Shown here in pieces: positions 536 through 62,202 of a DNA stretch of 64,000 nucleotides. The stretch comes from Malacoraja senta (lineage: Eukaryota): the NCBI GenBank assembly GCA_038087875.1, contig CM075991.1, positions 868,001 to 932,000 of the forward strand, written 5' to 3'. The notes under the pieces were generated by a model. The model ran no database searches. It was not told the DNA's origin and was given only the letters and a program-made list of their open reading frames with translations. The position numbers and the translations under genes were made by a program. Every line of letters starts with the position of its first letter. Positions within the stretch are counted from its first letter, which is position 1.

Positions 536-877
536 ATGCGGACAGTTCGGATCTCTCACCTGGTCCAGGGACCATGGTCGCTGATGGTCACCCTGTGCCT
601 CTGCCTCCTGTTCCTCTACTTCCTTGTTCCGGGCTGGCAGCAGCACATCCAGCCCGGGTCCGGGGAGCTGGACAAGCTGCGGGTGGAGGCGGCCAAACTG
701 CGGGTGGAGGTAACAGGGCTGCGGGAGAAGACAGCCAAGCTGCGGGATGAGGCGGCCAAGCTGCGGGATGAGGCGGCCAAGCTGCGGGTGGAGGTAACAG
801 GCCTGCGGGAGAAGACGGCCAGGCTGCGGGATGAGGCGGCCAAGCTGCGGGATGAGGCGGCCAAGCTACAGGAGCAG
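536..877 (+). CDS. Exon 1 of a putative type II TM + coiled-coil (tetherin/BST2-like architecture) gene
   Basis: ATG536 opens MRTVRISHLVQGP-WSLMVTLCLCLLFLYFLVPGW (single hydrophobic anchor), followed by heptad repeats KLRDEAA/KLRVEVT/GLREKTA. Ends ...CAG|gtagcg, phase 0; the same donor sequence recurs at 2214 and 3647. Confidence 0.8.
673..870 (+). repeat. Coding 21-bp minisatellite (heptad repeats, with an 84-bp higher-order unit)
   Basis: About 9.5 copies of (gcc)aagctgcgggatgaggcg-type units; the block KLRVEVT-GLREKTA-(K/R)LRDEAA-KLRDEAA occurs twice. Confidence 0.9.
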
Positions 878-1362
878 GTAGCGGGGGAAAGGCGGCGGTG
901 GAGTTACACAGTAGTGAGCAAAGATACTAGAGGAGCGCTACACTAATGGACAAAGTAGTGAGCGTCCCCACCGACCAGCGATCCCCGCACACTAACACCA
1001 TCCTACACACACTAGGGACAATTTACAATGATACCAAGCCCATCGACCAACAAACCTGCACGTCTTTCGGAGTTTGAGGTTTTTATTGTCACAGTGAAAA
1101 GCCATCCACAGTGTACAGATACAGGATAAGGGAATAACGTTTAGTGCAAGAGAAAGCCAGTAAAGTCGGATTCTAAGCTAGTCCAAGGGTCTCCAATGAG
1201 GTAGATGGTAGTTCAGGACTGCTCTCCAGTTGTTGGTGGGATGGGTCAGTTACCTGATAACAGCTGGGAAGAAACTGAACTCTTACATAGGATCCAGAGA
1301 AATACTTCAAGCAAAGTCATATTTTTTAACATTTCAATATTTTCTTGTGTCTTTTTAAACAG

Positions 1363-1441
1363 ATGTCTGCTCAGAATGAGATGATCAAAAAACTGCAAGA
1401 TCAGGACCAGGACTTGCAATCCAAAATTGACAAAATGCAAG
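1363..1441 (+). CDS. TM-coiled-coil gene exon 2 (79 bp, module B copy 1)
   Basis: Pyrimidine tract ttttcttgtgtctttttaaacag| then MSAQNEMIKKLQDQDQDLQSKIDKMQ(G) |gtcagt; phase 0 to phase 1; heptad pattern. Confidence 0.8.
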
Positions 1442-2104
1442 GTCAGTTCAACAACAATTGCATTTGCATAGCGCCTTGGAGAATGTTCCTAAGTACTAGA
1501 GAGAAATGTATATGTTGAATAAAAGTTGATGCTAAGCCGGTGAGTTGGAGAAGGGGGTCATAAGTTCATTAGTGATAGGAGCAGAATAAGGCCATCTTTA
1601 GCCAGAAGGTGGTGAGTCTGGAATTCTTTGCCACAGATGGCTGTGGAGGCCGTCAGTGGATATTTTTAAGGCAGAGATAGACATATTCTTGGTCAGTACG
1701 GGTGTCAGAGGTTATGGGGAGAAGGCAGGAGAATAGGAGGGAGAGAGAGATCAGCCATGATTGAATGGTGGAGTAGACTGGATGGGCCGAATGACATAAT
1801 TCTACTCCTATCACTTATGACCTTAATTCTACCCCGCCATTCAATCGTGGCTGATCTATCTCTCCCTCTCAGCCCCATTCTCCTGCCTTCTCCCCGTGAC
1901 CCCTTGACACCCACACACTTGTCACAACTGACATAAGAAGGTCATAGATGGGGTCATACAGCGTGGAGCCAGGCCCGTCGGGAGGGGGATAGTATGTTTT
2001 TAAACTCATCAGGAAGCTAAAATATACAGGGGGCAAAGTTTCAACTCAAAGAAGCTCCATCCTTCCTCTCCAAATCCACAATCTTCAAATTCTTCTTTTG
2101 ATAG

Positions 2105-2214
2105 GTGATCTTCAGCGCTGTCGGAATGCGAGCGTGAAACATGGAGAACTGGTGCAAGGATTGAAGCGCAGTTTGGAAAACAATGAAGGCCAAAACTCAA
2201 ACCTACGGAAGGAG
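2105..2214 (+). CDS. TM-coiled-coil gene exon 3 (110 bp, module C copy 1)
   Basis: tcttcttttgatag| GDLQRCRNASVKHGELVQGLKRSLENNEGQNSNLRKE |gtagcg; phase 1 to phase 0, in frame with exon 2; Cys followed by N-glycosylation sequon NAS. Confidence 0.8.
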
Positions 2215-2795
2215 GTAGCGGGGAAGCGAGGGGAGGTTGCGGGAAATGGGGCTGCGGATAGCGGAGCTGTGGGGAAAAACTGGCGATTGGACACTAGTGA
2301 AGGAACGTTACACTATTGGGCAGTAGTGTGGGAGCCACACTGAGTCCTCACCGACTAGCGATCCCCGCACACTAACACTATCCTACACACACTAGGGACA
2401 ATTTACAATGATACCAAGCCCATCGACCAACAAACCTGCACGTCTTTGGAGTTTGAGGTTTTTATTGTCACAGTGAAAAGCTTTTGTTGCGTGTTAACCA
2501 GTCAGCGGTAAGACAATACGTGATTACCATGGAGCCATCCACAGTGTACAGATACATGATAAGGGAATAACGTTTAGTGCAAGAGAAAGCCAGTAAAGTC
2601 GGATTCTAAGCTAGTCCAAGGGTCTCCAATGAGGTAGATGGTAGTTCAGGACTGCTCTCCAGTTGTTGGTGGGATGGGTCAGTTACCTGATAACAGCTGG
2701 GAAGAAACTGAACTCTTACATAGGATCCAGAGAAATACTTTAAGCAAAGTCATATTTTTTAACATTTCAATATTTCCTTGTGTCTTTTTAAACAG

Positions 2796-2874
2796 ATGTC
2801 TGCTCAGAATGAGATGATCAAAAAACTGCAAGATCAGGACCAGGCCTTGCATTCCAAAATTGACAAAATGCAAG
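2796..2874 (+). CDS. TM-coiled-coil gene exon 4 (module B copy 2)
   Basis: aaacag| MSAQNEMIKKLQDQDQALHSKIDKMQ(G) |gtcagt; 1433 bp downstream of copy 1. Confidence 0.78.
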
Positions 2875-3537
2875 GTCAGTTCAACAACAATTGCATTTGC
2901 ATAGCGCCTTGGAGAATGTTCCTAAGTACTAGAGAGAAATGTATATGTTGAATAAAAGTTGATGCTAAGCCGGTGAGATGGAGAAGGGGGTCATAAGTTC
3001 ATTAGTAATAGGAGCAGAATAAGGCCATCTTTAGCCAGAAGGTGGTGAGTCTGGAATTCTTTGCCACAGATGGCTGTGGAGGCCGTCAGTGGATATTTTT
3101 AAGGCAGAGATAGACATATTCTTGGTCAGTACGGGTGTCAGAGGTTATGGGGAGAAGGCAGGAGAATAGGAGGGAGAGAGAGATCAGCCATGATTGAATG
3201 GTGGAGTAGACTGGATGGGCCGAATGACCTAATTCTACTCCTATCACTTATGACCTTAAGTCTACCCCGCCATTCAATCGTGGCCGATCTATCTCTCCCT
3301 CTCAGCCCCATTCTCCTGCCTTCTCCCCGTGACCCCTTGACACCCACACACTTGTCACAACTGACATAAGAAGGTCATAGATGGGGTCATACAGCGTGGA
3401 GCCAGGCCCGTCGGGAGGGGGATAGTATGTTTTTAAACTCATCAGGAAGCTAAAATATACAGGGGACAAAGTTTCAACTCAAAGAAGCTCCATCCTTCCT
3501 CTCCAAATCCACAATCTTCAAATTCTTCTTTTGATAG

Positions 3538-3647
3538 GTGATCTTCAGCGCTGTCGGAATGCGAGCGTGAAACATGGAGAACTGGTGCAAGGATTGAAGC
3601 GCAGTTTGGAAAACAATGAAGGCCAAAACTCAAACCTACGGAAGGAG
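3538..3647 (+). CDS. TM-coiled-coil gene exon 5 (module C copy 2)
   Basis: Identical to 2105-2214 with intact AG/GT. Confidence 0.78.
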
Positions 3648-4228
3648 GTAGCGGGGAAGCGAGGGGAGGTTGCGGGAAATGGGGCTGCGGATAGCGGAGC
3701 TGTGGGGAAAAACTGGCGATTGGACACTAGTGAAGGAACGTTACACTATTGGGCAGTAGTGTGGGAGCCACACTGAGTCCTCACCGACTAGCGATCCCCG
3801 CACACTAACACTATCCTACACACACTAGGGACAATTTACAATGATACCAAGCCCATCAACCAACAAACCTGCACGTCTTTCGGAGTTTGAGGTTTTTATT
3901 GTCACAGTGAAAAGCTTTTGTTGCGTGCTAACCAGTCAGCGGTAAGACAATACGTGATTACCATGGAGCCATCCACAGTGTACAGATACATGATAAGGGA
4001 ATAACGTTTAGTGCAAGAGAAAGCCAGTAAAGTCGGATTATAAGGTAGTCCAAGGGTCTCCAATGAGGAAGATGGTAGTTCAGGACTGCTCTCCAGTTGT
4101 TGGTGGGATGGGTCAGTTACCTGATAACAGCTGGGAAGAAACTGAACTCTTACATAGGATCCAGAGAAATACTTTAAGCAAAGTCATATTTTTTACATTT
4201 CAGTATTTTCTTGTGTCTTTTTAAACAG

Positions 4229-4307
4229 ATGTCTGCTCAGAATGAGATGATCAAAAAACTGCAAGGTCAGAACCGGGACTTGCAATCCAAAATTGACGAA
4301 ATGCAAG
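4229..4307 (+). CDS. TM-coiled-coil gene exon 6 (module B copy 3)
   Basis: aaacag| MSAQNEMIKKLQGQNRDLQSKIDEMQ(G) |gtcagt. Confidence 0.78.
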
Positions 4308-4582
4308 GTCAGTTCAACAACAATTGCATTTGCATAGCGCCTTGGAGAATGTTACTAAGTACTAGAGAGAAATATATATGTTGAATAAAATTCGATGCTA
4401 AGCCGGTGAGTTGGAGAAGGGGGTCATAAGTTCATGTGATAGGAGCAGAATTAGGCCATCTTTAGTCAGAGGGTGGTGAATCTGTGGAATTCTTTGCCAC
4501 GGACGGCTGTGGAGGCCAAGTCAGTGGATATTTTTAAGGCAGAGATAGATAGATTCTTGATCAGTACGGGTGTCAGAGGTTA

Positions 4583-5197
4583 GAAACATAGAAACATAGA
4601 AATTAGGCGCAGGAGTAGGCCATTCGGCCCTTCGAGCCTGCACCGCCATTCAATATGATCATGGCTGATCATCCAACTCAGTATCCCGTACCTGCCTTCT
4701 CTCCATACCCTCTGATCCCTTTAGCCACAAGGGCCACATCTAGCTCCCTCTTAAATATAGCCAATGAACTGGCCTCGACTACCCTCTGTGGCAGAGAGTT
4801 CCAGAGATTCACCACTCTCTGTGTGAAAAAAGTTCTTCTCATCTCGGTTTTAAAGGATTTCCCCCTTATCCTTAAGCTGTGACCCCTTGTCCTGGACTTC
4901 CCCAACATCGGGAGCAATCTTCCTGCATCTAGCCTGTCCAACCCCTTAAGAATTTTGTAAGTTTCTATAAGATCCCCTCTCAATCTCCTAAATTCTAGAG
5001 AGTATAAACCAAGTCTATCCAGTCTTTCTTCATAAGACAGTCCTGACATCCCAGGAATCAGTCTGGTGAACCTTCTCTGCACTCCCTCTATGGCAATAAT
5101 GTCCTTCCTCAGATTTGGAGACCAAAACTGTACGCAATACTCCAGGTGTGGTCTCACCAAGACCCTGTACAACTGCAGTAGAACCTTCCTGCTCCTA
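4583..5197 (-). mobile_element. 5'-truncated CR1 LINE 3' end inserted in unit 3
   Basis: ORF 4678-5172(-) is the CR1 ORF2 C-terminus (LVRPHLEYCVQFWSP...RGDLIETYKI...GHSLRI); (ttctatgt)n tail; it splits gtcagaggtta|tggggagaagg, which is contiguous in units 1-2. Confidence 0.92.
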
Positions 5198-5589
5198 TAT
5201 GGGGAGAAGGCAGGAGAATAGGAGGGAGAGATAGATCAGCCATGATTGAATGGTGGAGTAGACTGGATGGGCCAAATGACCTAATTCTACTCCTATCTCT
5301 TATGACCTTAAGTCTTCTCCGCCATTCAATGATGGCTGATCTATCTCTCCCTCTCAGCCCCATTCTCCTGCCTTCTCCCCGTGACCCCTTGACACCCACA
5401 CACTTGTCACAGCTGACATAAGAAGGTCATAGATGGGGTCATACAGCGTGGAGCCAGGCCCGTCGTGAGGGGGATAGTATGCTTTAAAACTCATCAGGAA
5501 GCTGAAATATTCAGGGAGCAGAGTTTCAGCTCAAAGAAGCTCCATCCTTTCTCTCCAAATGCACAATCTTCAAATGCTTCTTTTGATAG

Positions 5590-5692
5590 GTGATCTTCAT
5601 GACTGTTGGACTGAGAGCGGGAAGCACAGAGAACTGGTGCAAGGATTGAAGCGTAATTTGGGTGACTGTGCAAGCCAAAACTCAAACCTTCG
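5590..5692 (+). CDS. TM-coiled-coil gene exon 7 (divergent module C copy 3, 103 bp)
   Basis: ttttgatag| GDLHDCWTESGKHRELVQGLKRNLGDCASQNSNL(R) CG|gtatga; phase 1 to phase 2. Confidence 0.72.
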
Positions 5693-6657
5693 GTATGATC
5701 TGCAAGTCCTTGTGCCTTTATGAAATAGAACTTGACTTTGGGTACTATTGAATACCTTTGATCACCCGTACACCAGTTCTATCCAACACACCCGGGACAA
5801 TTTACAGAAGCCAATTAACCTACTATCCTGCAAGTTTTTGGAATGTGGGAGGAAACTGGAGCACGAGGGCAGCATGGTGGCACAGCAGTGGAGTTGCTGC
5901 CTTACAGCGCCAGAGACCTGGGTTTGATGCTGCCCATGGGTGCTGTTTGTACAGTGTTTGTATGTTCTTCCCGTGACCATCGGGGGGTTTTCTCAGGGTG
6001 CTCCGGTTTCCTCAAACATCCCAGGGATGTGCAGGTTTGCACGTTAATTGGCTCATGTAAAGTTGTGAATTGTCCCTGGTGTGTGAGATGGTGCTAGTGT
6101 ACGTGGGATCACCGGCCGGCGCGGACTCGGTGGGCTGAAGGACCACGCTGTGTTTCTAAACTAAAACCCAAGCCGCCACAGAGAGAACATACGAACTCTG
6201 TACAGACAGCACCGGTCGTCAGGATCGAGCCCGGGTCTCCGGTGCTGTAAGTGCCGTAAGGCAGCAACCCTACCGCTGTGCCGAGTCTGCGGAAATCTCT
6301 GCCCCAGAGGGTGGTGGAGGCCGGTTCTCTGGATACTTTCAAGAGAGAGCTAGATAGGGCTCTTAAAGATAGTGGAGTCAGGGGATATGGGGAGAAGGCA
6401 GGAACGGGTACTGATTGTGGATGATCAACCATGATCACATTGAATGGCGGTGCTGGCTCGAAGGGCCGAATGGCCTACTCCTGCACCTATTGTCTATTGT
6501 CACTGTGCCGCCCGTATTGGGTTATGGAGAGAATTTCCCTGAGAGTTTGACTCGCTAAAGGCCAGACCAAAGCTGGGCTTCAGTAAGACCATTCTTCAAC
6601 ATCCATTTTTAAAAAACAGCGAGTTAATTCAGAATTCCCTGCATTTATTTCTTACAG

Positions 6658-6772
6658 ACGAAACTGCCGGGGTCAATCATGCAAATGCCAGGATGATAAC
6701 AAATGGTGGCTCAACTTGCCTTTTGGTTTGGGCCGCTTCCTGCGTTGCTGCCTGGGCTATTGCTCCAAATGA
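6658..6772 (+). CDS. TM-coiled-coil gene exon 8 (terminal coding exon; exon continues to donor at 6780)
   Basis: gcatttatttcttacag| read in phase 2 gives (R)RNCRGQSCKCQDDNKWWLNLPFGLGRFLRCCLGYCSK* (TGA 6770-6772), then a strong donor ATG|gtaagt at 6780/6781. Confidence 0.62.
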
Positions 6773-8030
6773 CATGAATGGTAAGTTGAAGGGTCAACCC
6801 ATGCACAGTAGGGGGCAATAATGGGTGTGTGAGTGGGTGCAGGGCTCATCAGTCCTAGGAGCAGAATCAGGCCATTCGGCCCATCAAGTCTACAGCCATT
6901 CAATCATGGAAGCGGTGAGGTATGGGGAGTGGGTGGTGGGAGAGGGGGGGGCGGGGTGAGATGTAGAGATGGTGGGGGGGAGGTGTGGGGGTTGGTGATA
7001 GGGTGTGGGGAATGGGTGTGGTAAAGTTAGTGATAATATGGGGGGGGGGAAAGATTTGTGGGAGAGCGAATCCTTGGGATGGCGACTTGTGGACGCAGCC
7101 CAGACCATCACACAAACCAACCTCCCTTCCATTGACTCCATCTACACCTCACGCTGCTTCGGCAAGGCCAGCTGCATCATCAAGGACCAGTCTCATCCCG
7201 GGCCACTCCCTCTTCTCCCCTCTCCCATCAGGCAAGAATGCAGAAGTGTGAAAACGCATACCTCCAGATTCAGGGAGTTTCTTCCCAGCTGTTATCAGGC
7301 AACTGAACCATCCTACCACAACCAGAGAGCGGTCCTGAACTACTATCTACCTCTTTGGTGACTCTCAGACTATCCTCGATCGGACTTTACTGGCTTTACC
7401 TTGCACTAAATGTTATTCCCTTATCATGTATCTGTATGCTGTAAATGGTTCGATTGTAATCATGTATTATCTTTCCACCGACTGGTTAGCACGCAACAAA
7501 AAGCTTTTCACTCTACCTCGGTACACGTGACCATAAACTGAACTGAACTGAACTAGGGGGAGAGGTGGGTGATTTGTGGGGTGCATGTGGGCAGGGAAGA
7601 TGGGGAGATGGGTGTCGGCAAAGCTTGTTGTGAGAGCTCAGGTCAGTGGACATCCTGGTCGGTTATGCGAGAAGGGTTGTATGAAAGATCAGGAGGATGT
7701 GTAGAATGGAGGTACAGATGCTGGTTTGCACCGACGATAGTGTTGGAGCAGTAACTCAGCGGGTCAGGCAGCATCTCTGGAGGGATAGGATAGGTGACGT
7801 TTCGGGTCGGGACCTTCCTCAGACCGAGGGGAGGGACAGGGAGGTTATGACGTGCTAGGAAAATAGAAATGTCTGAATATCCTGTTGTGCCCTTTAAATC
7901 CCAAGGCAGACCTTGAAGGTTGGACAACTCCTGTCTGAAGGGAAGGCAGTGGTTGGTGGTTATAAACAGAATGATGATCCTCTAGGTGTGACCCTCGAGA
8001 GAACTTTATGGTGAAGATCTTTCCCCACAG

Positions 8031-11681: not shown

Positions 11682-14151
11682 ATATAGAGCTATATCACTT
11701 TTAAATACAGATCCGAAAACTTTAGCAAAGACCTTAGCAAGAAGATTGAGTAAATATATTAGTAAATTGATAAATCCAGATCAAACGGGGTTTATACCCA
11801 AAAGACATTCATTTAATAATTTGAGACGCCTGTTTAATATAATGTACTCACATAAAACGGAGGAAGAAGATATATCAATTGTTTCTCTGGACGCAGAGAA
11901 AGCATTTGATCAGGTAGAGTGGCAGTATTTATATAAAGTACTGCAAAAATTTAATATGGGAGAGAATTCTATTGTATGGGTAAAATTATTATATGATAAA
12001 CCGACGGCAAGAATATTAACTAATAACATGTTATCTCCAAAATTTCAATTATCGAGGGGCAATAGGCAGGGATGTGCATTATCACCCCTGCTAGTTGCCC
12101 TTATGATAGAGCCCTTAGCTGAAAGTATAAGAATTCATCCGAATATTCGGGGATATAATAGTAAGGACTCAAATAATAACATTTCATTATACGCAGACAA
12201 TATACTTCTATACATTACAAATTCGCAAACGAGCATACCAAACTTATTAAATTTAATAGAGGAATTCGGTTATTTTCCAGGATACAGAATAAACTGGAAT
12301 AAAAGTTAAAACCTCAGATTGCAACAGAAGAATTTAAGTATTTGGGTGTCCAAATTACTAGAAAATACAATTCATTATTTAATGCTAATTTTACACCCTT
12401 ATTAAATAAATTGAACGCGTTGATTAAATTCTGGAAAACAGTCCCATTGTCATTAATAGGCAGAATAAACGCCATAAAAATGATATTTTTACTACAAATA
12501 TTATACCTATTTCAATCTATACCATTATACATACCAAAAAACGTCTTCAAAAAACTAGACTTTAACATTACCAACTTTATTTGGGACTATAGATCACATA
12601 GAATTCAAAGAAAACACCTGTGTAAACCCAAAGACGCTGGGGGACTTTCACTTCCGAACTTGTTGTATTATTACTGGGCAGTGCATATTAAAAATATAAT
12701 TTATTGGTTGGACAGTCCTACCCAACAGACAGAATGGATAAGAATGGAGAAAGAGGTTTGTTCTCCTTGTAATATAGGAGCGATCCTCTTCTCCCCGATA
12801 AAACTGAACAACACAATATATAAGAATAATCCAATTGTCCACAATACAATAAGAATTTGGAAACAAATAAAATTAACTTTAAAATTAAGAAACCTATCAC
12901 TTAACGCCAATAGTTAATAATCCTTCATTTAAACCATCTCTCAACGATAAAACATATAACCAATGGGAAAGAATGGGAATTAAAAGGATCGGCGATATGT
13001 ATGAAATGGGAAATCTGTTATCATTCCAACAATTACAATTAAAATTTAAGCTGAAAAATAACCAATATTTTAAATACCTTCAGATCAGCGACTTCATGAA
13101 GAAATATATACAAGATATCAAACTTTAACTTTAGATCCACTGGAAGAAGCAATGAATATTAAGGCTGACTCACAGAAATTAATATCATATTTATATAATA
13201 GTATTTTAAACATAGAACTACCATCGACAGAGGCACTTAGAGAAGATTGGGAACGAGAATTATTGATAAAAATCACGAATGAAACATGGGAAAAGCATTT
13301 GATATATATACACAAATGCTCGATTAACGTAAGACATAACCTAATTCAATTCAAAATTCTACATAGATTATATTATTTCAAAACTAGATTGAATAAATTT
13401 AATCCAAATACTTCTCCCATTTGTGATAAATGTTTATCTTAAAATGCCACTATAACACACTCTTTTGTTTCCTGCATAAAACTTCATAAATTTTGGAGCG
13501 ACATCTTTGAAATATTTACAAAATTATTCAAGATAAAAATGGAGCCTAACACTGAAATGATTCTACTTGGAGTAACGGAAGACGGGAACAAACTGAACAC
13601 ATTTCAAAATTCATTTTTTAATTATGGGTTAATAACGGCAAAAAAATGTATACTTAAATGTTGGAAAAATACACCCATACCAACGCTTAAAATGTGGATT
13701 TCAAACATGTTGGAAACCGCACATCTTGAAGAAATGCGATTCCTCCTAATAGATAAATCAGACCAATTCTTAACGAGTTGCTCTCCATTTGTCGTCTTTT
13801 TGGAAGCATATGGTGCAACTTAATTGTAGAAGCTAACTGTTCCAGGACTGGGTGAGGGATGGTCAAGATTATAAATAACTATCTCCTACAATCTCCTACT
13901 CTCTACTTCTTTTTCTCTCTCTTTTTTTTTCTTCCCCTCTTTACCCCCTTTTCCTTTTCACACATCTAGACATCACACGCTTTTCTATTTCTTTATTACC
14001 TATTCTTTCTTTTTCTCTTTTATTGTTAAAGGAAAAATAATAAGAAGCTGTACATAAAATGTAACCTGTCAATATATATTAGGCAGCTTGGCACATTACT
14101 GTACTTACTTCTAATAAAATTAAAATATTTAAAAAAAAGAACAAAAAAAAA
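11682..14151 (+). mobile_element. 5'-truncated, degenerate L1-clade LINE (ORF2 RT and C-terminus)
   Basis: ORFs 11746-13823 contain PDQTGFI, SLDAEKAFD, RGNRQGCALSPLL, YADNIL, YRINWNKS, GGLSLPN and C-terminal CDKC; AATAAA plus A-rich tail; TSD AGATAGAGCTC at 11671-11681 and 14152-14162. Confidence 0.92.
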
Positions 14152-17196: not shown

Positions 17197-17796
17197 TTTT
17201 TAAAAAAAAATATTTGTATTTTATTAGAAGTACACTAATGTGGCACCAAGCTGCCTAATATATATTGACAGGTTACATTTTATGTACAGCTTCTTATTTT
17301 TTTTTAATAATGAAAGAGAGAAAGAGAGAATAGATAATAAAAGATAGAAAAACGTGTGATATATGGTGTGTGAAAAGGAAAAAGGGGGGAAAGAGGGAAA
17401 GTGAAGAAAAGAAAAGGAGAGAGAAAAAGAAAGAGTAGAGAGTAGGAAATTAAGGAGATCGTTATTTATATTCTTGACCATCCTTCACCTAGTCCTGAAA
17501 GTTGGTTTCTACGATTTTGTTGCACCATATGCTTCCAAAAAGTTGATAAACTCGTTAAGAATTGGTCTGATTTATCTATTAGGAGGAATCGCATTTCTTC
17601 AAGATGTGCGGTTTCCAACATGTTTGAAATCCACATTTTAAGCGTTGGTATGGGTGTATTTTTCCAACATTTAAGTATATGTCTTTTTGCCGTTATTAAC
17701 CCATAATTTAAAAATAAATTTTGAAATGTGTTCAGTTTGTTCCCGTCTTCCGTTACTCCAAGTAGAATCATTTCAGTTCTAGGCTCCATTTTTATC
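17197..17796 (-). mobile_element. 3' end of the same L1-clade family, inserted in a TG microsatellite
   Basis: ORF 17466-17789(-) MEPRTEMILLGVTEDGNKLNTFQN... is near-identical to 13539-13823; same 3'UTR and A-tail. Confidence 0.9.
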
Positions 17797-18044
17797 GTGT
17801 GTGTTGTGTTTCTGTGTCTCTGTGGCTGTGTGTGTATGTCTCTATCTGCGTGTGTGTCTGGGTGTGTCTCTGTGTGTGTGTGGGGGGGGGGGACAGTGGA
17901 GAGACACGTTTTCAGTTAAGAGTTTGACACGAATACTGTCAATACGAGCAGCACACGGAGCAGAGTCAGAATGAGAAACACTGCTCGGCTCTCACACACA
18001 CACACTCATGGAGTGACCTGTAGATATAAACGTGGCTGGGGGTA

Positions 18045-28245: not shown

Positions 28246-28395
28246 CTACACCAGCTTCTTGGCTTCAAAGAAGCTCTTCAGGTGCTTCATCTGCCAGATC
28301 CCAGTGAGGATCAGAATGATTGTTTGGGCAATCGACCACCACAGGACTCGCTGGTTGGTGCTTTCACTCGTCAGCCGGAACCGTTCTTCCCGATA
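28246..28395 (-). CDS. TMED4: TMED4 (p24 alpha family) last coding exon
   Basis: ttttgtgcacag| [51 protein letters not shown] plus FF and KKxx ER-retrieval motifs. YREERFRL and SIAQT match TMED4 rather than TMED9. Confidence 0.92.
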
Positions 28396-31875: not shown

Positions 31876-32022
31876 CCTCTGGTAGTTCTGTTCTTTCTGA
31901 ATCTGTTCCACCTGGTCCAGCAACTGTCGCACACGCAGCTGCAGCTCTGTCAGTTTATCTTTTGCGGCGATTTCTGGGTAGTTATTGGCATGTTCCCCCA
32001 CTTGGATATCAAGGTGCACCCG
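31876..32022 (-). CDS. TMED4: TMED4 penultimate exon (coiled-coil)
   Basis: ctgcag| [49 protein letters not shown] |gtgagt; 147 bp, phase 0-0. Confidence 0.93.
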
Positions 32023-32490: not shown

Positions 32491-35400
32491 ACATAGAAAC
32501 ATAGAAAATAGGTGCAGGAGTAGGCCATTCGGCCCTTCGAGCCTGCACCGCCATTCGATATGATCATGGCTGATCATCCAACTCCGTATCCTGTACCTGC
32601 TTTCTCTCCATACCCCCTGATCCCTTTAGCCACAAGGGCCACATCTAACTCCCTCTTAAATATAGCCAATGAACTGGCCTCAACTACCTTCTGTGGCAGA
32701 GAATTCCAGAGATTCACCACTCTCTGTGTGAAAAATGTTTTCCTCATCTCGGTCCTAAAAGATTTCCCCCTTATCCTTAAACTGTGACCCCTTGTTCTGG
32801 ACTTCCCCAACATCGGGAACAATCTTCCTACATCTAGCCTGTCCAACCCCTTAAGAATTTTGTACGTTTCTATAAGATCCCCCCTCAATCTTCTAAATTC
32901 TAGCAAGTACAAACCGAGTCTATCCAGTCTTTCTTCATATGAAAGTCCTGACATCCCAGGAATCAGTCTGGTGAACCTTCTCTGTACTCCCTCTATGGCA
33001 AGAATGTCTTTCCTCAGATTAGGAGACCAAAACTGTACGCAATACTCCAGGTGTGGTCTCACCAAGACCCTGTACAACTGCAGTAGAACCTCCCTGCTCC
33101 TATACTCAAATCCTTTTGCTATGAATGCTAACATACCATTCGCCTTCTTCACTGCCTGCTGCACCTGCATGCCTACTTTTAATGACTGGTGTACCATGAC
33201 ACCCAGGTCTCGTTGCATCTCCCCTTTCCCTAATCGGCCACCATTCAGATAATAGTCTACTTTCCTGTTTTTGCCACCAAAGTGGATAACCTCACATTTA
33301 TCCACATTATGCTGCATCTGCCATGCATTTGCCCACTCACCCAGCCTATCCAAGTCACCTTGCAGCCTCCGAGCATCCTCCTCACAGCTAACACTGCCCC
33401 CAGCTTCGTGTCATCCGCAAACTTGGAGATGTTGCATTCAATTCCCTCGTCCAAATCATTAATATATATTGTAAATAGCTCGGGTCCCAGCACTGAGCCT
33501 TGCGGTACCCCACTAGTCACTGCCTGCCATTGTGAAAAGGACCCGTTTACTCCTACTCTTTGCTTCCTGTCTGCCAGCCAGTTCTCTATCCACATCAATA
33601 CTGAACCCCCAATACTGTGTGCTTTAAGTTTGTATACTAATCTCTTATGTGGGACATTGTCGAAAACCTTCTGAAAGTCCAGATATAACATATCCACTGG
33701 TTCTCCCTTATCCACTCCACTAGTACATCCTCGAAAAATTCTATAAGCTTCGTCAGACATGATTTACCTTTCATAAATCCATGCTGACTTTGTCCAATGA
33801 TTTCACCACTTTCCAAATGTGCTGCTATCCCATCTTTAATAACTGATTCTAGCAGTTTCCCCACTACCGACGTTAGACTAACTGGTCTGTAATTCCCCGT
33901 TTTCTCTCTCCCTCCCTTTTTAAAAAGTGGGGTTACATTAGCTACCCTCCAATCCTCAGGAACTACTCCAGAATCTAAAGAGTTTTGAAAACTTATCACT
34001 AATGCATCCACTATTTCTGGGGCTACTTCCTTAAGTACTCTGGGATGCAGCCTATCTGGCCCTTGGGATTTATCGGCCTTTAATCCATTCAATTTACCTA
34101 ACACCACTTCCCGGCTAACCTGGATTTCACTCAGTTCCTCCATCTCATTTGAACCCTGCTATTTCCGGCAGATTATTTATGTCTTCCTTAGTGAAGACTG
34201 AACCAAAGTAGTTATTCAATTGGTCTGCCATGTCCTTGTTCCACATGATCAATTCACCTGTTTCTGACTGCAAGGGACCTACATTTGTTTTAACTAATCT
34301 TTTTCTCTTCACATATCTATAAAAGCTTTTGCAGTCAGTTTTTATGTTCCCTGCCAGTTTTCTTTCATAATCTATTTTCCCTTTCCTATTCAAGCCCTTT
34401 GTCCTCCTCTGCTGGAATTTCTCCCAGTCCTCTGGTAGGCTGCTTTTTCTGGCTAATTTGTACGCTTCATCTTTTGTTTTTGATACTATTCCTGATTTCC
34501 CTTGTTATCCATGGATGCACTACCTTCCCCGATTTATTTTTTTGCCAAACTGGGATGAACAATTGTTGTAGTTCATCCATGCAGTCTTTAAATGCCTTCC
34601 ATTGCATATCTACCGTCAACCCATTAAGAATCAATTGCCAGTCTATCTTGGCCAATTCACTTCTCATACCCTCAAAGTTACCTTTCTTTAAATTCAGGAC
34701 CCTTGTTTCTGAATTAACAATGTCACTCTCCATCCTAATGAAGAACTCAACCATATTATGGTCACTCTTGCCCAAGGGGCCACGCACAACAAGACTGCTA
34801 ATTAACCCTTCCTCATTACTCAATACCCAATCTAGAATAGCCTGCTCTCTCGTTGGTTCCTCTACATGTTGGTTTAGAAAACTATCCCGCATACATTCCA
34901 AGAAATCCTCTTCCTCAGCACCCTTGCCAATTTGATTCACCCAATCTATATGTAGATTGAAGTCACCCATTATAACTGTTTTACCTTTGTTGCACGCATT
35001 TCTAATTTCCTGTTTGATGCCATCCCCAACTCCACTACTACTGTTAGGTGGCCTGTACACAACTCCCACTAGCGTTTTCTGCCCCTTAGTGTTTCGCAGC
35101 TCTACCCATATCGATTCCACATCCTCCAAGCTAATGTCCTTCCTTTCTATTGTGTTAATCTGCTCTCTAACCAGCAATGCTACCCCACCTCCTTTCCCTT
35201 TCTGTCTATCCCTCCGGAATATTGAATATCCCTGGATGTTCAGCTCCCAGCCTTGGTTACCCTGGAGCCATGTCTCCGTGATCCCAATTATATCATAGTC
35301 ATTAATAGCTATCAGCACATTCAACTCATCCACCTTATTACAAATGCTCCTTGCATTGAGACACAACGCCCTCAGGCTTGTTTTTACAACACTCTTACCC

Positions 35401-39075: not shown

Positions 39076-39460
39076 TTTTTTTCCACAGGCAAAGGTAAAT
39101 GCCTGGAATGTGCTGCTGGGGGTGGATATACAATAGTGGCATTTAAGAGGTTTCAGATAGGCACATGGATATGAAAGGAATGAAAGGGTACATGCAGGGA
39201 CTGGAGATTAGTTTAACCTGGCATCACGTTGGGCACAATATTGGCTGAAGAGAAGAGGAAGTGCGTGCAGAACAGAGGATACTCCAGTTACTGGGGGAGT
39301 TGCCCAAGTCCAGCCTACAGTACACATTCCACTTCCTCTAGTTCACTGTTCCTCGTTTCACTTTGAGGTAAGCAACAAGGCAGTTGTAACATAAGCCGCT
39401 GAAAACTCAGACAGGCTTCTATTGAGATAACATACCAAGCACCCAATGTCCAGCTCTTAC

Positions 39461-39585
39461 CAGCTTGCCACCTGCAAACAGTGTCATCTTTGTCGAGTTG
39501 GAGTGGAGGCAGATCTGGTGCTCGCCGGGAGTGTGCGAGGTGAAGGTGAATCTTCCCTCCGAGCCGTACTGCGGGACAGGATCAC
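39461..39585 (-). CDS. TMED4: TMED4 exon 3 (GOLD domain), 125 bp, apparent 1-bp deletion
   Basis: ttcgcag| VILSR-(frameshift)[37 protein letters not shown] |gtaaga. Confidence 0.88.
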
Positions 39586-39992
39586 CTGCGAAGTGGAAGC
39601 AAAGGTCAGACTAGTGAAGGACACAGCAACTCACCACTTGGGGTTCAATCAGCATTCCCCGTGGGAAGGGAACAACTCTACACCTGGAATGAACGATTTA
39701 GCAAAAAAGACAGAGTGCTGGAGTAACTCAGCGGGTCAGGCAGCATCTGTGGAGAACATGGAGAGGTGACGTTTCAGACTGCTGGAGTAACTCAGCAGGT
39801 CAGGCAGCATCTGTGGAGAACATGGAAGGGTGGTATGTCGGGTCGGGGCCCTTCTTCAGACCAGAGTCAAAATATCACCCATGTTCTCCAGAGTTGCTGC
39901 CCAGTCCGTTGAGTTACTCCAAGACTTTTCCCTTCACAGGTAACGGATGTGGAGTTAATATTCTGCACTCTCACTATCGCAGAAGCAAGGAC

Positions 39993-40192
39993 NNNNNNNN
40001 NNNNNNNNNNNNNNNNNNNNNNNNNNNNNNNNNNNNNNNNNNNNNNNNNNNNNNNNNNNNNNNNNNNNNNNNNNNNNNNNNNNNNNNNNNNNNNNNNNNN
40101 NNNNNNNNNNNNNNNNNNNNNNNNNNNNNNNNNNNNNNNNNNNNNNNNNNNNNNNNNNNNNNNNNNNNNNNNNNNNNNNNNNNNNNNNNNNN
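39993..40192. other. Assembly gap (200 N)
   Basis: Run of exactly 200 N, likely a placeholder of unknown true size. Confidence 0.99.
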
Positions 40193-58298: not shown

Positions 58299-58601
<303 letters not shown>

Positions 58602-59832: not shown

Positions 59833-61623
59833 GGGGTAACTTTTTCACACAAATGGTGGCGGGTGTATGGAACAAGCTGCCAGAGGAGGTAGTTGAGGCT
59901 GGGACCATCCCAACGTGTAAGAAACAGTTAGACAGGTGCATGGTTAGGACAGGTTTGGAGGGATATGGACCAAGGGCAGGCAGATGGGACTAGTGTAGCT
60001 GGGTCATGTTGGCCGGTGTGGGCAAGTTGGGCCGAAGGGCCTGTTTCCTGGCTGTATCACTCTATGACTCTCTACGACTCCCAATTGTTAACAGGATCTT
60101 GTCTTAAATCATCAGCTCCATTCTATGGCACTCCCTCAATATAACACTAGAGTTAGTCTTGATATTTTGTAGAAACAAGGAGCAAAAAAAGACACAGAGT
60201 GCTGGAGTAACACAGCGGGTCATGCAACATCTCTGGAGAACATGGATAAGTGACGATTTAGGGTGGGTGGAGGGGAGGACAAAGCCTGGAAAGTGATAGG
60301 TGGATACAGGTGTGGGGGGGTAGGCAAATGGTTGGGCAAAGATCAGAGATGAAAAGACAAAAGGTATGAGATAAGGATAGAAGTGTGAATTGTGAAGCCA
60401 GAGGAAGGAATGTAGATGGAATTGGAGAGGGGGGAGGGAGGAGAAGAAATGGATGTGAGTCCAGGTGGGGCACAAGGAAGAGAGTACAGAGGCACAAAAT
60501 GGGGGCGGGGAGAGAAGAGGGATGGTTTTAGTTGTTTACCTAAAATTGGAAAATTCAATGTTGATGGCTGCTGTTGAGATGAAGGGCCAGATATGCTGTT
60601 TACCTTGGTTCACTACAGGTCTGAGCCCAAAGATGTGTCTGGGGCAGAACGTTGTGCTCACACAGGCATGGACGAGTCCTGTGTGATCTTTCACATCCAT
60701 TGGTTGGAGTGCCCAAACAACTCACCCAGTGACACACTTGAGGACAAAAGTGGATCTACTAGAGACATCGAGCGATAGACTTTAATTTAGACTTTGGTTT
60801 ATTAGTTTAGTTTGGAGATACAGCGCGGAAACAGGCCCTTCTAAAATAAATACACTTCAGGCCGTCAGTCATGCCGTTCATTAACCTGGCGCTGACTTTT
60901 ATTGCTATTAGATGTGCTTAATTGAATCCCTAACCTCTCTTTGTTCAGTCCACTTGCTTCCCACCCCCATGCCACATCGTTTAAATGCTTCCGTAGCACA
61001 AGCAGCCAATGTCAGATGCAAACCCTGTTCTTTTCAAATTAGTCTCAAAATTAATGTTGTCTTTATAGTCGTTCAAATACTGGCGCTGTAATAGCCCTGT
61101 CCCACGGTACGAGTTCATTCCAAGAGCTCTCCCGAGTTAAAAAAAATCAAACCTCGTGGTTAGCACTGAGAATGAACGTAGCGGTATGTCGGAGCTCGGG
61201 GACGTCTCTTAGCGCTAACGGCAGGTACTCGGGAAGACTTGCTAACGGCAGGTAAGCATGGGAAGACTCGTGAAGATTTTTCAACATGATGAAAAATGTC
61301 CACGAGAGCCCCCAGTACCGACGAGTGGCCATTACCGTAAATCTCCGAGTTCGAATCAGGGCAAACTCGGGAGAACTCTTGGAATGAACTCGTACCGTGG
61401 GACAGGGGTTTAAGGCAGCAACTGTACCACTATGCCACTGTACCACCCCTATATAGCATGGAGGCAGGCTCTTCAGCCCATCTTGCCCATGCTGACCATT
61501 GGCATTTGATTTGCATTGTTTTATGATAAGGCAGAATTGCAAGCATTGCTCTTATGTGTGTGGCATTCATTATTCTGCTGAAGGAACACGTGCAATTATA
61601 CAGATGTCACAGAGCGGACTCAC

Positions 61624-61690
61624 CTCCAGAATAGACAACACCATGTTGCAAGGGGCCGGTGTACGCGCCAATCCGAAGCATGCCCGATTC
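61624..61690 (-). CDS. NT5DC4: NT5DC4/NT5C2-like exon
   Basis: ESGMLRIGAYTGPLQHGVVYSG(G); 67 bp, phase 0-1. Confidence 0.92.
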
Positions 61691-61944
61691 CTGTTCATGA
61701 ACAAGACCATAAATAAACACAATGCACTGTCTTGGTCATCACTCAAGAGAGAACAAGTCATTGTTAAAATGTAGTTATGCTGCAGTCTTTGCAATCTCGA
61801 GAGTTAGGATAGAACATTGCTCTCTGCACAGAGGTCTTTGGCTGATCAGACTTCACAACTCAGAGGTACTGCAGACGGCAATGGGAATAATTAGCACAGA
61901 AAGGTGGCGTACTGTGGGAACTGGTAATCCAAATGAGCGAATTA

Positions 61945-62202
<258 letters not shown>

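Follow-up and report, generated by a model that had tools for sequence, protein, structure and literature searches.

In a stretch of 64,000 nucleotides (nt) of the skate Malacoraja senta (GenBank assembly GCA_038087875.1, contig CM075991.1, positions 868,001 to 932,000 of the forward strand; from here on the window, in whose own numbering all positions are given) we have analyzed a gene in which a module of two coding exons, B and C, is found three times in tandem. The sequences indicate that the triplication is real, old and common to skate species. It very probably started with an unequal crossover between two exons of the same gene, followed by a second duplication and by homogenization of the unit interiors. 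The product is probably a protein of 341 amino acids (aa) with one continuous coiled-coil rod of ~39 nm, to which the modules add core cysteines and outward N-glycan sites. More tentatively, and with somewhat less than an even chance, the protein may work like tetherin, as a rod bridging two membranes. The combination of this origin, this rod and a tetherin-like function is the best explanation that we can offer, and we hold it to be rather probable as a whole.

The three-module gene

The gene extends on the + strand from the ATG at 536 to a stop codon ending at 6772, with the three B+C exon pairs located at 1363-5701. Its features are the following:

536..877, + strand: coding part of exon 1, 114 aa, with a short basic N-tail, a hydrophobic segment (~aa 15-33) and ten heptads
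668..877, + strand: 21-nt heptad repeat within exon 1, with internal phase-0 donors after 709 and 793
878..963, + strand: 5' end of intron 1, a diverged homolog of the intron starts after C1 and C2
1125..3991, + strand: youngest tandem pair, period 1433-1434 nt, edges approximate
1363..1441, + strand: exon B1, 79 nt, phase 0 to 1
2105..2214, + strand: chimeric exon C1, 110 nt, with a C-type body and an exon-1-type end and donor
2796..2874, + strand: exon B2, 79 nt
3538..3647, + strand: chimeric exon C2, 110 nt, identical to C1
4229..4307, + strand: exon B3, 79 nt
4581..5197, no strand: repeat insertion in unit 3 only, 617 nt, with 94% identity over 614 nt to 32491-33104
5590..5701, + strand: ancestral-type exon C3, 112 nt to its GC donor (most likely end); the alternative GT donor after 5692 gives 103 nt, both in phase 2
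6658..6780, + strand: exon D, with a Cys-rich linker, a hydrophobic C-terminal segment, the stop ending at 6772 and a donor after 6780

As the original prediction had it, exon B (79 nt) and exon C (110 nt) add up to 189 nt, i.e., 63 codons or exactly nine heptads, and the three B and two C exons of these sizes have AG/GT ends. The module is in phase 0 at both ends and keeps frame and coiled-coil register as claimed, the register being unbroken over 37 heptads. C1 contributes one Cys at heptad position d and one N-x-S sequon at f. The start of the repeat had been set at 878, but over 878-963 the similarity is only weak and near-identity begins at ~964. Units 1 and 2 differ in 14 of 1247 gap-free columns, and each of them in 71 from unit 3; unit 1 lacks a 54-nt intron piece. 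The copies of the youngest tandem pair are 12 substitutions and one 1-nt indel apart, with zero differences between units 1 and 2 over 2034-2424. The left edge of this youngest exchange lies between 1124 and 1173, with unit 2 resembling unit 3 to the left of it and unit 1 to the right. All three units have, in the B-C intron, a hairpin of two opposed fragments of a common repeat (1700-1912, 3133-3345 and 5201-5397).

A protein search with the exon C stretch matched three of seven candidates with 74-83% identity; they belong to Amblyraja radiata and Leucoraja erinacea. The records of A. radiata (362 aa) and L. erinacea (348 and 285 aa) contain three modules, and the RefSeq proteins XP_032869788.1, XP_055517977.1 and XP_055517978.1 are orthologs with the same three modules as the window gene. 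Their names (myosin heavy chain-like, SYCP1-like, RILP-like) are automatic and reflect the generic coiled coil only. Five proteins from three other batoids, Rhinoraja (P0005, P0015 and P0006), Pristis and Hypanus, have a single module. These counts come from one genome per species and cover three rajid genes besides the five proteins. The three Rhinoraja longicauda proteins are single-module paralogs on one 32.8-Mb contig, which suggests a local cluster. One library-wide protein search gave 12 matches (six batoid proteins and six generic coiled coils) and another gave 10 (six batoid and four others). Shark, chimaera or bony-vertebrate relatives were absent among these 12 or 10 matches, a weak test in the case of a coiled coil that evolves fast.

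If units 1 and 2 were two haplotypes assembled in tandem, the true gene would have only two modules. Their difference of 1% does fall within the 1.6% heterozygosity given for the little skate (PMC10115646). However, two independent skate annotations also have three modules, which makes such an artifact very improbable.

The rest of the gene model agrees with the orthologs. The start codon is the same in the ortholog records P0001, P0002 and P0004, with an in-frame stop close upstream, and exon D is 76% identical to residues 249-285 of P0002. The orthologs ruled out the other open frame of exon D, and a derivation of this exon from the last exon of the adjoining TMED gene was also discarded (probability 0.3%). 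The model ends with the donor at 6780, beyond which a final non-coding exon would follow. Every tblastn match fell inside 536-6769, i.e., there were no further copies of the gene in the window. The reading frame stops in exon D, and no lectin or other globular domain was found downstream.

The end of C3 had been predicted at 5692. A GT donor does exist there, but this end opens a gap of three residues in the alignments with the two ortholog proteins tested, whereas with the donor GCAAGT after 5701 the alignment at the end of C3 is gap-free against both and the Tyr and Leu are matched. The two in-frame candidate donors (GT and GC) are 9 nt apart, at 5693-5707, and the orthologs favor the GC position. 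The heptad register is neutral in this respect, placing the next Cys at d (5701) or at a (5692). Most likely C3 ends at 5701, and we have taken this as the ancestral boundary.

Origin of the chimeric exon

The same 9-nt donor motif follows C1, C2 and exon 1 and is missing after C3, exactly as had been noticed. The proposal built on it, that exons C and 1 recombined at their ends by unequal crossover, is backed by homology of the introns, by a base switch at ~2200-2214 and by the single-module relatives, in which the ancestral state is seen. Once the shared 9-nt donor was excluded, 887-963 aligned to 2224-2343 with a score of 46 (shuffled sequences 21.8 +/- 4.1; 0 of 1000 reached 46). The intron after C3 scored only 22 against the same target (58 of 1000 shuffles) and 12 against intron 1 (988 of 1000). 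Base by base, C1 is C3-like up to ~2200 and exon-1-like from ~2214, with a mixed zone between them, and exon C and exon 1 share frame and heptad position at the junction. The intron homology, the base switch and this common frame and heptad position thus support the chimeric nature of the exon.

A tree of 12 modules puts modules 1 and 2 of all three species (six in total) into one clade (96/90) apart from modules 3, indicating that the chimeric exon is older than the split of these skates (Amblyraja-Leucoraja). Inside it, those of the window are closest to each other (86/84), in agreement with conversion or renewed duplication in the line of the window species, and in Amblyraja and Leucoraja the first two modules have position-specific residues in common (sites 18-19; tree 80/90). 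There are six sites common to modules 1 and 2 within a species. Three of them (15, 16 and 52) are also found in a Leucoraja paralog and may be ancestral, so that only the other three speak for conversion.

Between exon C and C3, 20 of 101 nt differ, compared to 44 of 1058 columns in the introns. Positive selection as a cause of this excess (p=9e-8) was rejected, since the excess is matched at synonymous sites (4.5 of 21.3 sites; proportion of synonymous differences, pS, 0.21 vs a nonsynonymous proportion, pN, of 0.19). With both rates alike, the edges appear to have drifted while the interiors were homogenized, and age would be a simpler reading of the excess than selection.

The history that we propose would be as follows. 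The ancestral batoid gene would have had exons 1, B, C and D. In the rajid line, a short stretch of similar sequence, at which both exons agree in frame and heptad position, would have let the end of C mispair with that of exon 1 in an unequal crossover. Its product would be a module of B plus chimeric C with phase 0 at start and end. A second duplication would have given three modules. Since then, conversion or renewed unequal exchange would have kept the units no more than 1-7% apart in their interiors, with drift at their outer edges (20% in exon C, far more at the 5' edge of the intron).

A different source for the chimeric exon has to be considered on account of the L. erinacea protein P0003, a truncated paralog that consists of exon 1, B, a chimeric-type C, B and then a read-through into the intron, without the C-terminal anchor. 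The translation of the read-through matches the window intron after B for ~15 codons. The exon and its intron could have been imported from a paralogous gene of this kind (e.g., the LER29 type) and not formed by crossover within the gene. The 5' edge of the intron is indeed far more diverged than the unit interior, P0003 already has the chimeric-type C followed by a second B, and its B shares two residues with window modules 1 and 2. Nevertheless, the same pattern is obtained if the event was old and intragenic and the gene was later duplicated, with drift at the edges, and in the module tree the P0003 module is the sister of the six rajid chimeric modules (85/80). We regard the import as a minor alternative, quite improbable next to the intragenic crossover.

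Tandem duplication of symmetric (phase 0) exon modules with concerted evolution is a general mechanism. The skate gene resembles it in having a unit that keeps the frame, unequal crossover, homogenized interiors and diverged edges. The difference is that here the symmetric unit would be a new one, made when two different coding exons were broken internally where their heptad positions match.

The predicted rod and its length

The predicted product starts with a hydrophobic segment, continues as a rod and finishes in a hydrophobic Cys-rich end. Along the 37 heptads the hydrophobic fraction is 0.70 at a and 0.78 at d, vs 0.03-0.24 at the other positions. The five rod cysteines (146, 209, 272, 293 and 307) are all at d and both sequons at f, the disulfides being placed by position only. 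If 0.1485 nm is assumed per residue, residues 45-307 would measure ~39 nm. With every added module come one core Cys and one N-glycan site; compared to C3, one Cys has been lost and the sequon gained. On account of these core cysteines and outward-facing glycan sites, two parallel chains, glycosylated and joined by disulfides, probably make up the rod outside the cell. The term ectodomain fits the architecture, from which an extracellular location is plausible. The AlphaFold2 model of the Leucoraja ortholog (8 sequences) is in essence a single long helix (44-241), with two more at 14-31 and 263-283 (mean predicted local distance difference test, pLDDT, 74.9; predicted template modeling score, pTM, 0.28). 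A homodimer prediction for its residues 44-258 gave 0.18 and 0.20, too low for an answer (mark 0.32).

The original prediction also saw in the number of modules a way to tune rod length, and this was not supported. All three rajid genes have three modules, and the sole isoform difference of 63 aa, between X1 and X2 of L. erinacea, sits in the heptad repeat of exon 1, so that module skipping was ruled out as its source. In X2, exon 1 ends at residue 58, the place of the window internal donor after 709. The residues before the first B number 114 in the window gene, 135 in Amblyraja and 121 and 58 in the two Leucoraja records, always in steps of seven (isoform lengths are those of database gene models), and the internal donors after 709 and 793 would drop 8 or 4 heptads. 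It is this exon-1 repeat with its internal donors, and not the number of modules, that would give rise to fine variation in length. It is true that a module still serving as a switch, through its copy number or through exon skipping, within skate species or from one to another, would agree with the recent exchange indicated by units 1 and 2 (99% alike), with the grouping of the window modules 1 and 2 and with a symmetric module whose skipping preserves the frame. However, besides the constant count and the exon-1 location of the isoform difference, the position-specific residues shared by Amblyraja and Leucoraja in modules 1 and 2 argue against such a switch, which we consider improbable.

Tetherin-like build and chromosomal setting

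Tetherin is defined in the sources by topology and by its position between CILP2 and PLVAP (PMC10617486, PMC3989765); distant tetherins share architecture and little sequence and are hard to find outside mammals (PMC10617486). The likeness of the skate protein to tetherin/BST2 (CD317) lies in the short N-tail, the hydrophobic segment, the coiled coil with core Cys and N-glycan sites, and the hydrophobic C-end. C63 and N65 of human tetherin have the same C-x-N spacing as the skate module, and cysteine-linked dimers are described as important for tetherin (both in PMC9513188). Bat tetherin has heptad-sized splice variants (7-aa exclusion, PMC9599465), like the exon-1 steps of the skate gene, and tandem repeats are described in hamster tetherin (PMC3989765). 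Two further proteins come into the comparison. TMCC(aT)/CCDC194 has, in its long isoform, a similar tail, membrane segment and coiled coil; in the avian long isoform a second hydrophobic region replaces the glycosylphosphatidylinositol (GPI) anchor (PMC10617486), and the Leucoraja paralog P0003 lacks the C-anchor as the TMCC(aT) short form does. On the other hand, no sequence match to TMCC(aT) was shown, the window copy sits elsewhere and not adjacent to the tetherin position, and avian TMCC-L is described in PMC10617486 as lacking antiviral activity. PLVAP (PV-1) is also a type II membrane protein with a long Cys-bearing coiled coil, but without the second hydrophobic segment of the skate protein.

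The skate rod would be held in the membrane at both ends, by the N-terminal anchor and by the C-terminal hydrophobic Cys-rich segment in place of GPI, and could in this way bridge two membranes, e.g., those of the cell and of a budding enveloped virus. Release is restricted even by an artificial protein made of a coiled coil and two anchors, i.e., architecture alone suffices for tethering (PMC3989765). In the ESM Atlas, with the search confined to named clusters, the single-module sawfish protein had as its three best neighbors BST2-like (0.86, 187/256 features), BST2 (0.81) and PLVAP (0.80), although scores <0.9 are to be taken as leads only.

A number of observations weigh against this function. 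The unrestricted ESM Atlas search with the three-module protein gave only hypothetical proteins (0.76-0.77). For each of five proteins, the BST2 family (PF16716) was outside the best 25 of 42-79 Pfam families, a weak test given that distant tetherins share little sequence, and PLVAP (PF06637) was absent among the same best 25. BST2 or PLVAP chains were likewise missing among 5 and the best 60 of 91 PDB matches; both Pfam and PDB gave generic coiled coils only. No interferon-stimulated response element (ISRE) or gamma-activated sequence (GAS) pattern was found in 1-1362, where only 535 nt upstream of the gene are in the window and the promoter may lie outside. The pN of exon C is not above its pS, hence no sign of positive selection. 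Rajid proteins have two sequons each, but the sawfish and stingray relatives have none. The N-segment, with a hydropathy of 2.25 (aa 15-33) and modeled in the ortholog as a helix (14-31), may be a signal peptide that is cleaved off, which would look alike. The C-segment has a hydropathy of 0.77 in the window species, 1.33-1.38 in other rajids and 1.93-2.26 in non-rajids, where a polar tail follows, and it is unlike a typical GPI signal. Splicing, expression and copy number of the window gene rest on gene models of other species. Besides, the rod size of human tetherin is reported as flexible for HIV-1 (human immunodeficiency virus 1) restriction (PMC9513188), which counts against a role for length.

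The chromosomal position points in the same direction. The downstream neighbor is a p24/TMED family gene (PF01105), presumably TMED4, on the - strand and tail to tail with the triplicated-exon gene; its exons are at 28249-28395 (last coding exon), ~31900-32020 and ~39460-39590. The CILP2-PLVAP position was not found for the window copy, with this TMED gene on the downstream side, the ortholog on Leri_35C, and the upstream side outside the window. In the skate literature LER35 corresponds to GGA22 and LER29 to GGA28, and the skate has its own Plvap (LE21641), numbered among Ankle1, Unc13a, Klf2 and Ap3d1 (PMC10115646). We infer that the three-module gene of Leucoraja is on Leri_35C, hence on LER35=GGA22 and not on LER29, and its paralog P0003 on Leri_29C. 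We assume that the Ankle1/Unc13a/Klf2/Ap3d1 block belongs to GGA28 and so to LER29, the supplement rows examined giving no chromosome for Plvap. With a paralog on LER29 and the ortholog on LER35, the family may stem from the tetherin chromosome while the window copy is now elsewhere.

A run of N (assembly gap) at ~39993-40192 falls in the region of the TMED gene, with none within the triplicated-exon gene. By eye, - strand stretches at ~58400-58540, 61600-61700 and 62040-62160 look like coding exons that give an impression of cytosolic 5'-nucleotidase, and at ~11700-14150 there seems to be an AT-rich decayed element, similar to long interspersed elements, with a poly(A) tail, a similar fragment running in the opposite direction near 17200-17800.

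Since the position and Pfam tests failed and the GPI signal is only putative, we do not file the window copy as tetherin and speak instead of an unnamed batoid family of tetherin-like build. A bolder proposal, of which we are doubtful, makes it a batoid branch of the tetherin/TMCC/PLVAP cluster, whose rajid copy would have changed chromosome and reached more than twice the rod length of mammalian tetherin. The increase, to ~39 nm, would be due to the nine-heptad module, which carries a disulfide and a glycan site of its own; the membrane end would be Cys-rich in place of GPI, and splicing within the exon-1 repeat would give length variants. Literature searches turned up no paper on this gene, although the primary papers on the origin of tetherin may already list candidates from cartilaginous fish.

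The same architecture can be interpreted without virus restriction. With a cleaved signal peptide, the protein would be a type I rod with a short acylated tail, or a secreted rod in the rajids with a weak C-segment, and would act as a spacer, in adhesion or as a surface coat. A short basic N-region followed by 16-19 hydrophobic and then small residues is what this would require, in non-rajids the C-segment has the look of a genuine membrane helix, with cysteines and a polar tail behind it, and the failure of the window copy in the tetherin synteny and Pfam tests agrees with it. However, the neighbors of the single-module form in the ESM Atlas are all type II proteins, one paralog is on LER29, and several paralogs on one Rhinoraja chromosome together with low conservation fit an immune gene. 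We see such a spacer as possible, if unlikely.

Although tandem exon duplication itself is ordinary, the history of this gene would be a clean, dated case of a symmetric exon module born from a crossover within two coding exons, whose single-module ancestor form other batoids have kept. Should the protein be no more than a spacer on the surface, the finding would be a modest curiosity. The larger interest is in the protein: the batoids would offer a natural series, with one or three modules and a variable number of exon-1 heptads, that would test directly the roles of rod length, extra disulfides and a non-GPI anchor.

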